Shown here: one piece after another, positions 59,336-61,551 of the stretch | How the letters are laid out: every line of letters starts with the position of its first letter | How positions within the stretch are numbered: the stretch's first letter is position 1 | NCBI GenBank assembly: GCA_041737595.1 | Contig: JBGSRK010000010.1 | Coordinates: 46,393 to 110,392, forward strand | Length of the DNA: 64,000 nt | Direction of reading: 5' to 3' | Source of the DNA: Patescibacteria group bacterium | GTDB taxonomy: Bacteria; Patescibacteriota; CPR2; UBA1875 | Notes under the pieces: model-generated | Databases searched by the model: none | What the model saw: only the letters and a program-made list of their open reading frames with translations | Told to the model about the DNA's origin: nothing | Translations under genes and position numbers: made by a program

Positions 59336-60133
59336 CTAGTCTAATGTCTTTGGTTGTTTCTTTCCATGTTCCTTTAATTCAACACTATTTTCTATAACAA
59401 GCCCTTTTTCTTTTCTCTCCTCAGGTGTCATTTCTTCATAATATTTCCAGAGCGTAGGAGCATATTTTTTTAATGCAACCATTCCCTCGTTTAACATAGA
59501 ATATGCATTATGCTCGTCCATCCATCCCTGCCCTAAAATTTGTTTAATGATTTTATCCATATTTGCACCTGTTCCAACAAAATCTTCAGCAGTCCGCGCC
59601 ATTAATTCACTGGGTGACTGTGATTTTTTAATTGAATTTTCAAGTACCCGTAAGCCTTTTACTAACTTATCCTGTATCTCTTCTTTACCAGAACTTTGCA
59701 TTTGATCTATTAACATTCTTGGTAGAGAAAATCCTGGAAGTGCGTTTATCGGTGCCATAGTTTCAGTATAATTATCAGGGACTGATTGAATTTCAAATTT
59801 ACCAGCAGGTTCATCGTCCATCCTGTCAGCAGCTTTCTTAAATTCTTGATAAAGTTCTGGATTGTAATGTTCAATTTCACGGCTAATATAGCCATACCAA
59901 AAGTTAACTTCTCCATAACGATTTATCATTTTTTCAGGACCACGACCCCCCTCTTCTGTTGGAGCGATAAGTTCCTCTACCACTGGACAACCTGCTCTCT
60001 GTCCTAAAAATCTTGCTTGGTCTTCCAGCGACATTTCAAAAAATGCAGGGTCGTTTATGTCTTCGACAAATTTCCCAGTTCCAAATGTTTCTTCTGATGG
60101 TCTTGATAATTCCATAATAAAATAATACCACAC
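59336..60133 (-). CDS. hypothetical protein (higher-GC block)
   Basis: 265 aa. Start probably MELSRPSEE (60115). No recognisable motif. Confidence 0.4.
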   Translation of the reverse strand: MWYYFIMELSRPSEETFGTGKFVEDINDPAFFEMSLEDQARFLGQRAGCPVVEELIAPTEEGGRGPEKMINRYGEVNFWYGYISREIEHYNPELYQEFKKAADRMDDEPAGKFEIQSVPDNYTETMAPINALPGFSLPRMLIDQMQSSGKEEIQDKLVKGLRVLENSIKKSQSPSELMARTAEDFVGTGANMDKIIKQILGQGWMDEHNAYSMLNEGMVALKKYAPTLWKYYEEMTPEERKEKGLVIENSVELKEHGKKQPKTLD

Positions 60134-60282
60134 TTATGTTCAACAGTTCCATCATCCGATTTGGGGTATATAAAAAAAGGCTTAATAAAGCCGAATTTAT
60201 TTTGGCTCAGCACTCCGCTCAAGAACCCTAGGGCAGTTTTAAGTACGAAATGGCACAATTTGGCACAGTAATTAGACTGGAT

Positions 60283-60427
60283 GTCTCACTTTTCGACGAA
60301 TTAAGCACAAAATGAGACAAATGAGACAGTTATTAAGTGTATTTATGTCAGTGTCTCAAAATCATGTGCTTAATTAATGAGACTGAGACAAATGAGACAC
60401 TATAAAGAGAGATGTACCAGTGTCTCA
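60283..60427. promoter_or_regulatory. array of eight TGAGACA/TGTCTCA boxes (5 direct, 3 inverted) with nested inverted repeats TTAAGCACA…TGTGCTTAA
   Basis: Boxes at 60283, 60313, 60322, 60353, 60378, 60384, 60393 and 60421, arranged as two similar modules GTCTCA-N~20-TGAGAC(n)TGAGAC. Confidence 0.5.
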
Positions 60428-60435
60428 AGCAAGTA

Positions 60436-61551
60436 TTATTTGAATCTTCCCGAGATCTCTTCAACACATTTGCTAAATAGGCTACCGTTTATAGAAGGTT
60501 TACCGTCTTTATCTTTCCTGATAGCACAGCAGTGCAGTAGCGCTTGGACTGCTTGATCGTTTGAGACATCTTCGCCTTTCGAAATCTTTACTAGCGTGCG
60601 CACCTCTTCTTCTGTAAACATTTCAATAAGCCTTTGGTGATAAATGTTATAAATTAGATTCATCAGTCCAGCAGACTCGAGATTAGCTTCTATCTTCTTA
60701 GAATCAATGTCGCTTCCCGTAAATGTTTTCCGAGGGTTAAATAGTGGAGCTGATTTATCGTAGAAAGTTTTTACTAGAGTCACGGTTTCGGCTGGCCAAC
60801 CTCCAGTAAGAGCAATAATCTTATCAATTGCCGCCTCGTCAAATGTAACCCCATGTTTTGCGAAGTGCCTATCCAGAAGCTCGGATATTTCGTCAAGTTC
60901 TAGCGGCCTTACGAATACTTTCTCGATATCAGCCATTTCGGCCGAACCTAGAGCATTAAGTGTAACCGTATTTCTGTGTGTCTGACATAGGAATTTTAAA
61001 GCCTTTTTTCCTTTAAGTTTTGCTAGCAACTCTGCAATCCTTAGCGTTTCATCTTGTCCGTAGTCACGGATAGCCATTAACTCGTCGACAGTAATAAGAA
61101 GGGTTCGACCATTGGACTCTAGATATTCGTCAAGTTCTGTTAAACTTTTGAAATCTGAGTTTAATTCAGTATTTATATGATTTAACATGTATTCAAAAAC
61201 AGCATCGGCGCCCTCATTTCCCCTCTGGGCTACAGAGAAATCTCTTAAATCAATGTCGACACCGTTTTCAGCAAAGTAACGCTCTTTAACTTGTGCCTGA
61301 AGATAAGATGCGCCTTGCCTTTTCATGCTCTCTATTAGTACGAGACTTGCTCGAGAAAAAGCATCGTATATATCTTCTTGTTGATCTACTCTACTCTCAA
61401 GCTCTACCCGTCCACGCTTAGCCATTGTCTCTACACCGCCGGTCTCGAACTCGATGTCTCTGAGTAATGATTTATCCGAAATTAAATCACTATTCTGATT
61501 GGTTTTTGGGTCAGAATAATCGCCTGGTGCCCCTACCCTTATTTCATTCAT
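60436..61551 (-). CDS. hypothetical protein with archaeal-ATPase(ATPase_2)-like central region but no Walker A
   Basis: LLITVDELMAIRDYG (Walker-B-like) and LTGGWP resemble the ATPase_2 family. No GxxxxGK[ST] found. Confidence 0.35.
   Translation of the reverse strand: MNEIRVGAPGDYSDPKTNQNSDLISDKSLLRDIEFETGGVETMAKRGRVELESRVDQQEDIYDAFSRASLVLIESMKRQGASYLQAQVKERYFAENGVDIDLRDFSVAQRGNEGADAVFEYMLNHINTELNSDFKSLTELDEYLESNGRTLLITVDELMAIRDYGQDETLRIAELLAKLKGKKALKFLCQTHRNTVTLNALGSAEMADIEKVFVRPLELDEISELLDRHFAKHGVTFDEAAIDKIIALTGGWPAETVTLVKTFYDKSAPLFNPRKTFTGSDIDSKKIEANLESAGLMNLIYNIYHQRLIEMFTEEEVRTLVKISKGEDVSNDQAVQALLHCCAIRKDKDGKPSINGSLFSKCVEEISGRFK

Follow-up and report, generated by a model that had tools for sequence, protein, structure and literature searches.

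A tandem array of TGAGACA boxes in an intergenic spacer of a Patescibacteria genome, a candidate reiterated operator

A 302-bp spacer (60134-60435) separates two minus-strand genes in the 64,000-nucleotide stretch analysed here (hereafter the window; Patescibacteria group bacterium, contig JBGSRK010000010.1), and 146 bp of it hold seven copies of the heptamer TGAGACA and one close variant. The boxes are arranged in tandem units in which they are conserved while the sequence between them has diverged, and the same palindromic module recurs at the promoter of a conserved operon for a Zn-ribbon/HTH_17 protein in four Saccharibacteria lineages. The reading favoured here, with about even confidence, is that an operator module has here been reiterated in tandem, and that the array would accommodate several molecules of one DNA-binding protein recognizing TGAGACAC. 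A preliminary description of this DNA had proposed three options, and it is the multi-dimer transcription-factor landing pad that is favoured, while an origin of replication and an integrase arm-plus-core site are not supported.

Clustering of the boxes and structure of the units

Exact TGAGACA occurs ten times in the window, with seven copies inside 60282-60427 (146 bp) and three in the remaining 63.8 kb. The eighth box is the variant TGAGACT (60378-60384), so that on the plus strand there are four exact direct boxes plus this variant and three inverted ones, in agreement with the five direct and three inverted copies first counted. The density of TGAGAC is 0.17 per kb outside the array, compared with eight in 146 bp, giving a Poisson probability of ~4e-18 per 146-bp window (~1e-15 to 2e-15 after correction for all windows). 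Lack of enrichment had been named in advance as an observation that would refute the array; the clustering is far above chance, and GTCTCA/TGAGAC is the sole non-AT-rich 6-mer to cluster so strongly in the 64-kb window. Centre-to-centre distances between successive boxes are 31, 9, 30, 26, 6, 9 and 28 bp and their orientation is mixed; only boxes 5 and 6 abut, the remaining gaps being 2 to 24 bp.

Read on the minus strand, the array consists of three tandem units of ~70 bp, two intact (B and C) and one degenerate (A). Unit C (60428-60360) has the form TTGAGACACTG, 18 nt, TGTCTCATTTGTCTCA (then GTCTCA); unit B (60359-60291) is TTGAGACACTG, 20 nt, TGTCTCATTTGTCTCA; and unit A (60290-60222) is GTGAGACA, 14 nt, TGTGCCAAATTGTGCCA. 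Each unit contains a palindromic pair, TGAGACAC-N19/21-GTGTCTCA, and a third box 2 bp from one arm. Box 1 (60282-60288, minus strand; TGTCTCA on the plus strand) is the inverted box of unit A. In unit B, boxes 2 and 3 form the plus-strand direct pair TGAGACA-aa-TGAGACA (60313-60328), and box 4 (60352-60358, minus strand), which lies inside TTGAGACACTG, makes a 37-bp palindrome with box 3 (60322-60358). Unit C holds boxes 5 (TGAGACT), 6 and 7 (TGAGACA-aa-TGAGACAC) on the plus strand (60378-60399) and box 8 on the minus strand (60421-60427), again inside TTGAGACACTG; boxes 7 and 8 form the 35-bp palindrome TGAGACAC-N19-GTGTCTCA at 60393-60427. The tandem 9-bp unit AAATGAGAC reported earlier is present, and TGAGACAAATGAGACA occurs twice, 71 bp apart.

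Comparison of units B and C reveals what has been retained. The boxes are identical at 27/27 positions, whereas the spacers match at 11/20 and the tails at 12/24, which is about the identity given by optimal alignment of unrelated AT-rich DNA. As the boxes are identical beside spacers that agree at only ~50%, it is the boxes, rather than the whole repeat, that are kept; a recognition sequence preserved between diverged intervening sequences is the pattern looked for in an operator array. In the degenerate unit A the position of the direct-box pair is taken by a variant pair, TGGCACA-att-TGGCACA (60251-60267, plus strand), in which an identical pair of changes (TGTCTCA to TGTGCCA) is found in both boxes.

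The perfect 11-bp inverted repeat AATTAAGCACA (60299-60309) / TGTGCTTAATT (60365-60375), with 55 bp between its arms, also exists, although as one pair with one arm per module (60299-60375) and not as a pair in each module as had been stated. It may be either a second box type or the mid-stem of a nested palindrome. Since each unit is quasi-palindromic in itself, another way to depict this DNA is as two palindromes, a nested one of 109 bp and one of 35 bp. The nested palindromes first noticed are real, single-strand folds of the array having z = -4.6 as DNA and -4.1 as RNA.

Recurrence of the module at the promoter of a Zn-ribbon/HTH_17 operon

When the pattern TGAGACAAATGAGACA-N15-35-TGTCTCA was scanned across 2.9 million contigs of viral collections, there was a single match, on a contig (L033) that is in fact a Saccharibacteria chromosomal fragment carrying a type I restriction-modification system and an ABC-F gene. 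Its module, TGAGACAaaTGAGACAC-N19-GTGTCTCA, has 2-nt and 19-nt spacings equal to those of unit C, and the palindrome formed by boxes 7 and 8 matches it in sequence and spacing. The L033 module encloses a -10 element (TATATT) and ends 27 nt before the Shine-Dalgarno sequence and ATG of a two-gene operon for a peptide of 40 aa and a Zn-ribbon protein of 178 aa. The peptide is 40-59 aa long across lineages. The Zn-ribbon protein belongs to a family of > 210 members, of which 19/21 match HTH_17 and 8/21 match MerR; all those with a source name come from Saccharibacteria or the candidate phyla radiation (CPR).

Six further independent loci of this family were picked by protein identity alone. An upstream small open reading frame (ORF) is present in 3/6, and those 3/3 carry the module at the same place: TGAGACAaaTGGGACAC-N19-GTGTTCCA in L043, CGAGACAaaTGAGACAC-N19-GTGTCCCA in L045 and TGAGACAC-N9-GTGTCTCA in L051. 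The spacer in L051 is exactly 10 bp shorter, one helical turn, and the arms thus stay in the same rotational register. A conserved -10 lies between the arms in all four loci (L033, L043, L045 and L051), one arm being upstream of it and the other at the start site. A single transcript could not contain both arms and so could not pair them, which makes a protein that reads the module as DNA the natural interpretation. The degenerate palindrome was counted eight times across 274 kb of non-redundant Saccharibacteria sequence, compared with 0.43 in shuffles: the array accounts for two of these, the operon promoters for four, and the last two are weak matches within long ORFs.

Since the module is found at the promoter of the Zn-ribbon/HTH_17 operon, the encoded protein, with its Zn-ribbon and excisionase/MerR-like HTH_17 domain, is the best candidate for the factor that would bind the boxes, and it may be an autoregulator acting at its own operon. 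Some 25-35 nt upstream of the module, L033 (~1363-1387) has a 25-nt block, TTGGCTCCCCATACAGGTCACGAAC, that is conserved at the equivalent place in L045 and L051; it follows a terminator-like hairpin with a locus-specific stem and has no tRNA or Rfam match.

The specificity of the scan was gauged with permuted boxes. A looser box scan gave nine viral contigs, five of them independent, and two permuted-box controls gave three and five matches, so that the hits on L034, L036 and L040 are background. Viral matches other than L033 were rejected as extra support, being at control frequency, and carry no weight; the family L035/37/38/39/41 is a coding coincidence in which the boxes encode M-S-Q-M-S-Q. 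No homologue of the HTH_17 protein was found in these viral contigs. L036 (1980-2400), a phage- or plasmid-like contig of 34% GC, has ~420 bp of interspersed TGAGACA/TGTGACA boxes in both orientations, ~570 bp from a 935-aa ORF that is primase-helicase-like by eye only; this array resembles an iteron-type origin sharing the box by chance, and the control scans put such matches at background frequency. L034 (1-130), the start of a 6-kb viral contig of 52% GC, has eight GAGACAC-type boxes (seven direct, one inverted) and is unrelated to the window.

Megablast and blastn searches of the region against phage and plasmid collections gave nothing relevant, PADLOC and NCBIfam scans of the flanking proteins gave no matches, and the motif was found in the literature only in primers and eukaryotic sequences. 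Neither Rfam, Pfam names nor the literature searches yielded this box, its arrangement or the candidate regulator, and literature searches on Saccharibacteria revealed no paper describing transcriptional regulation or cis-elements.

Transcription across the array and alternative explanations

The palindromes overlap a sigma-70-like promoter, P1, predicted on the minus strand (60399-60428) by consensus match only. It agrees with the consensus at 10/12 positions, with a -35 of TTGAGA (60428-60423) within box 8, an 18-nt spacer and a -10 of TATAGT (60404-60399) abutting box 7. At the other end of the spacer is an intrinsic terminator, GGCTTtattAAGCC followed by T7 (60169-60192, minus strand). The hairpin GGCTT-AATAA-AGCC (60179-60192), which had been called terminator-like, is confirmed as such, having a stem-loop followed by TTTTTTT on the minus strand, and the position of this T7 shows that it reads in the same direction as both flanking genes. 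The 3' half of the terminator and all sequence downstream of it are conserved in a relative (L032). Homology to L032 begins only at this point, indicating that the array belongs with the upstream block and not with the 259-aa gene beyond the terminator.

The 259-aa gene (59336-60115, minus strand) had been given as 265 aa; its start is most likely the ATG at 60115, which is the start called on an identical contig and is conserved in relatives. An extended -10, TGgTATTAT (60130-60122), lies 6 nt before this ATG (60115-60113), the two spanning 60113-60130 on the minus strand. The extended -10 (TGnTATTAT) is conserved in L031 (939-957) and L032 (283-300), and there is no Shine-Dalgarno sequence; its distance of 6 nt from the ATG implies a leaderless mRNA made from the gene's own promoter. 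The family is rare and restricted to Saccharibacteria, its relatives being in metagenome-assembled genomes of that name, and synteny is not conserved among the homologue loci. By these relatives, the source of the window would probably be a Saccharibacteria (TM7) bacterium. Upstream of one homologue (L030, 640-993) are three tandem ~62-bp units, each starting with a tRNA-Asp 5' end (GCGATCGTAGCT); they precede an intact tRNA-Asp and look like repeated partial tRNA duplications.

Because it overlaps the predicted P1, the platform is likely to repress transcription, or to insulate it, between the ABC-transporter/371-aa operon of the island and the 259-aa gene. If P1 is active, as we infer, a protein on the boxes would presumably repress or insulate a short transcript that crosses the array and stops at the terminator (60192-60170), immediately before the 259-aa gene with its predicted leaderless mRNA and a promoter of its own.

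Several observations weigh against an operator array. No gene for the candidate regulator lies in the window or the adjoining 7.5 kb, and its presence in the genome is assumed; a cluster look-up gave no accession by which a Zn-ribbon/HTH_17 gene could be assigned to the genome that the window comes from. TGAGAC boxes are absent upstream of homologues of the 259-aa gene at 25 other loci, and L001, a contig with a 55% homologue of the 371-aa gene, has no array and no iterons on either side of it. The array is thus strain-specific and could be recent or dispensable. A 92% relative (L003), which ends 62 nt past the stop codon of the 371-aa gene, keeps box 8 and does not keep box 7, its sequence diverging after box 8. 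There is no gene downstream of the modules in the orientation seen in L033, and a transcript from P1, if made, would end at the terminator without an obvious product. Lastly, 3/7 of the HTH_17 loci lack the module. In L001, the one distant locus to have a homologue of the 371-aa gene, a 76-aa ORF (2285-2515), small and winged-helix-like, follows this homologue by 44 nt; the window has no trace of this ORF and carries the array in its place.

Strain specificity, the already degenerate third unit and the lack of a gene after the modules in the orientation of the HTH_17 operons could all be accounted for if a promoter-operator fragment had been copied into the island, tandemly duplicated and left to decay without function. 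This is unlikely, however, as 27 perfect box positions beside ~50% identical spacers are not what neutral decay predicts, and the same two substitutions in both direct boxes of unit A suggest concerted change rather than random decay.

The inverted repeats might instead act in RNA, either as a structured 3' untranslated region of the ABC-transporter/371-aa operon or as a small RNA of ~220 nt, transcribed on the minus strand from P1 (start near 60392) to the terminator (60170). A promoter-like site opens such a unit, a canonical terminator closes it and no convincing ORF lies between them; moreover, the minus-strand RNA folds at -69 kcal/mol and 0/200 shuffles fold as well. Low folding energy is, however, an automatic consequence of repeated inverted boxes. 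Comparison with the Rfam 15 covariance models gave no gathering-score match for the array, and relaxing the threshold to E values of up to 10 gave chance eukaryotic matches only; the array has no homologous copies that could show covariation. Direct repeats with a 9-bp period have no obvious role in RNA and, as arms that flank a -10 in four orthologous promoters are unable to pair in one transcript, a function in RNA is considered improbable.

The neighbouring 371-aa gene (60436-61551, minus strand) raises the question of whether the array is a replication or partition site, composed of iterons or resembling origin recognition boxes (ORB), of a small mobile island. Archaeal Orc1/Cdc6 genes adjoin ORB-flanked origins, and rep genes of staphylococcal pathogenicity islands (SaPI) adjoin iteron origins. 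The array begins 9 bp past the stop codon of the 371-aa gene, whose product has only two close homologues among 5.8 billion proteins and remote relatives that are ATPase_2/STAND-like. An AlphaFold model from a 27-sequence alignment (predicted local distance difference test, pLDDT, 85; a 3-sequence alignment gave an unusable model with a pLDDT of 54) has an AAA+ base, a lid and a C-terminal winged helix. The best structural match to it is the Pyrococcus Walker-type ATPase PAB2304, followed by RFC, Cdc6/Orc1 (including a structure bound to origin DNA) and CED-4/NLR proteins. The linkage of box 8 to this gene is retained in L003, and the surrounding higher-GC block lies beside an intron-containing tRNA gene and a large serine recombinase. 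As in ORB beside orc1/cdc6, or in SaPI and plasmid iterons beside rep, repeats with inverted elements would here adjoin the gene for an AAA+ winged-helix protein that recognizes them.

Nevertheless, this is unlikely. The Walker A motif of the 371-aa protein and its two close relatives is degenerate (IESMKRQGAS, compared with GxWRxGKTS in remote relatives), and the structural matches are to generic AAA+/STAND folds with template-modelling scores of ~0.4-0.5, so that similarity to Orc1/Cdc6 is itself generic. Iterons share one orientation and a regular helical spacing, whereas the boxes are in mixed orientation at spacings of 6-31 bp. The L001 homologue of the gene has no such repeats, no unwinding element was found, and no helicase, primase or Rep gene was found in the block. 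GC skew and DnaA boxes in the window also fail to bear out the origin that had been proposed: cumulative GC skew declines without interruption between 52 and 64 kb, with no switch at the array, and DnaA boxes (one mismatch allowed) number 17 compared with 21.5 expected, with none in 60134-60435. Elsewhere, the same module is a promoter-operator.

The surroundings of the array were read from an identical Logan contig (L004, 16.4 kb) that extends the window (window coordinate = 71552 minus L004 coordinate). Leftward from beyond the right end of the window, the order is an intron-split tRNA gene with an HNH ORF, a HEPN-like ORF, a serine recombinase gene, a three-gene ABC transporter, the 371-aa gene, the array, the terminator and the 259-aa gene. 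The higher-GC block, of ~6-8 kb, adjoins the tRNA gene and has a GC content of 0.37-0.44, compared with ~0.30 in its flanks. The recombinase, a 424-aa large serine protein (Resolvase + Recombinase + Zn_ribbon_recom; L004 6012-7286, equivalent to window 64266-65540) adjoining the HEPN-like ORF, begins 266 bp past the end of the window and ~3.8 kb from the array. The earlier statement that no integrase is visible is therefore true within the window, with this one just outside it.

A group I intron (Rfam RF00028, 94.8 bits, E 9.5e-25) containing the HNH ORF interrupts the tRNA gene (L004 4206-5097, equivalent to window 66455-67346); the 5' exon begins TCCCGGGTAGCTCAGCGGTAGAGC, the 3' exon ends GGTTCGAATCCGACCCCGGGAGCCA and the gene was missed by ARAGORN. 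Just upstream of it is a GIY-YIG ORF flanked by 32-nt direct repeats that include the tRNA 5' end.

With a recombinase so near, the array could serve recombination, as an att site plus accessory sites, as a res-like site or as the two ends of a segment that inverts, and so mark the distal end of the island. The start of L032 homology only at the terminator places it near a synteny breakpoint, a perfect 11-bp inverted repeat flanks 55 bp, and the candidate binder is of the excisionase-type HTH_17 family; such a candidate, close direct repeats and a position near an island edge recall the clusters of Xis sites beside the att sites of tyrosine integrases. However, L004 carries only a large serine recombinase, and a tyrosine-integrase att site was rejected on this ground. 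The integrase arm-plus-core option of the preliminary description fails in the same way, since large serine integrases use simple att sites of < 50 bp and need no accessory sites (PMC1470463). A res site for a serine resolvase was likewise rejected, as the only recombinase has 424 aa with Recombinase and Zn-ribbon domains and lies ~3.8 kb off, and is not the adjacent small resolvase of res sites. No att core was identified: an att-like repeat shared by the tRNA-proximal end of the block and the array was sought and not found, and TGAGAC boxes are absent from that end too. The array also has the same orientation in two independent samples. A role in recombination is therefore regarded as very unlikely.

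The least credible proposal, close to dismissed here, is that TGGCAC-N4-TGGCA, which is indeed present at 60251-60265, is a sigma-54 promoter with the boxes as enhancer sites of its activator: it resembles -24/-12 elements, but the sigma-54 consensus is TGGCAC-N5-TTGC with an invariant 12 nt from GG to GC, and TGGCACAATTTGGCA has 11 nt, one base short, points antisense into the 3' end of the convergent 371-aa gene, would have its supposed enhancer sites downstream and aligns with the degenerate direct-box pair of unit A.

Relation to known systems and significance

Operator arrays are already known as a kind, and the feature is not surprising in kind. A reiterated operator at TGAGACA would be most like OR and OL of phage lambda together with autoregulated repressor promoters, where one short recognition sequence is present in several copies with diverged spacers, the sites overlap the -35 and -10, and the site recurs at the promoter of the presumed regulator itself. 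It differs from these in that its half-sites, of 8 bp, do not adjoin and are separated by 19-21 nt (one lineage has 9 nt), and in that one arm has a further direct box at a distance of 2 bp; in addition, it is not beside the regulator gene and no regulated gene has been identified. The ribbon-helix-helix protein Omega of pSM19035 recognizes 7-bp heptads, direct and inverted, which cover promoters in 7-10 copies and can double as centromere-like sites. The array likewise has 7-bp boxes in both orientations, but contiguity, the rule for Omega heptads, is limited in it to boxes 5 and 6, and its candidate binder is of the HTH_17/Zn-ribbon type and not a ribbon-helix-helix protein.

Two broader proposals may be made, which even taken together are doubtful. 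The array and the P-loop-degenerate, Orc1/Cdc6-like winged-helix ATPase might form a maintenance module (origin, centromere or titration site) of a kind not seen before, belonging to a small serine-recombinase island in Saccharibacteria; or the TGAGACAC palindrome might be the first cis-regulatory code of a phylum-wide Zn-ribbon/HTH_17 regulator, copied by mobile islands as a decoy to tap or titrate host control.

Saccharibacteria are epibiotic bacteria with reduced genomes. Taken together, the array and the four orthologous promoters allow an 8-bp palindromic box to be matched, as a concrete and testable proposal, to a candidate regulator with > 210 homologues. Should the protein not bind these boxes, the array remains a strain-specific curiosity. 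If it does, box and protein would be an operator-repressor pair native to Saccharibacteria for use in genetic tools, and the array would point to a host operator present in several copies on a small island.

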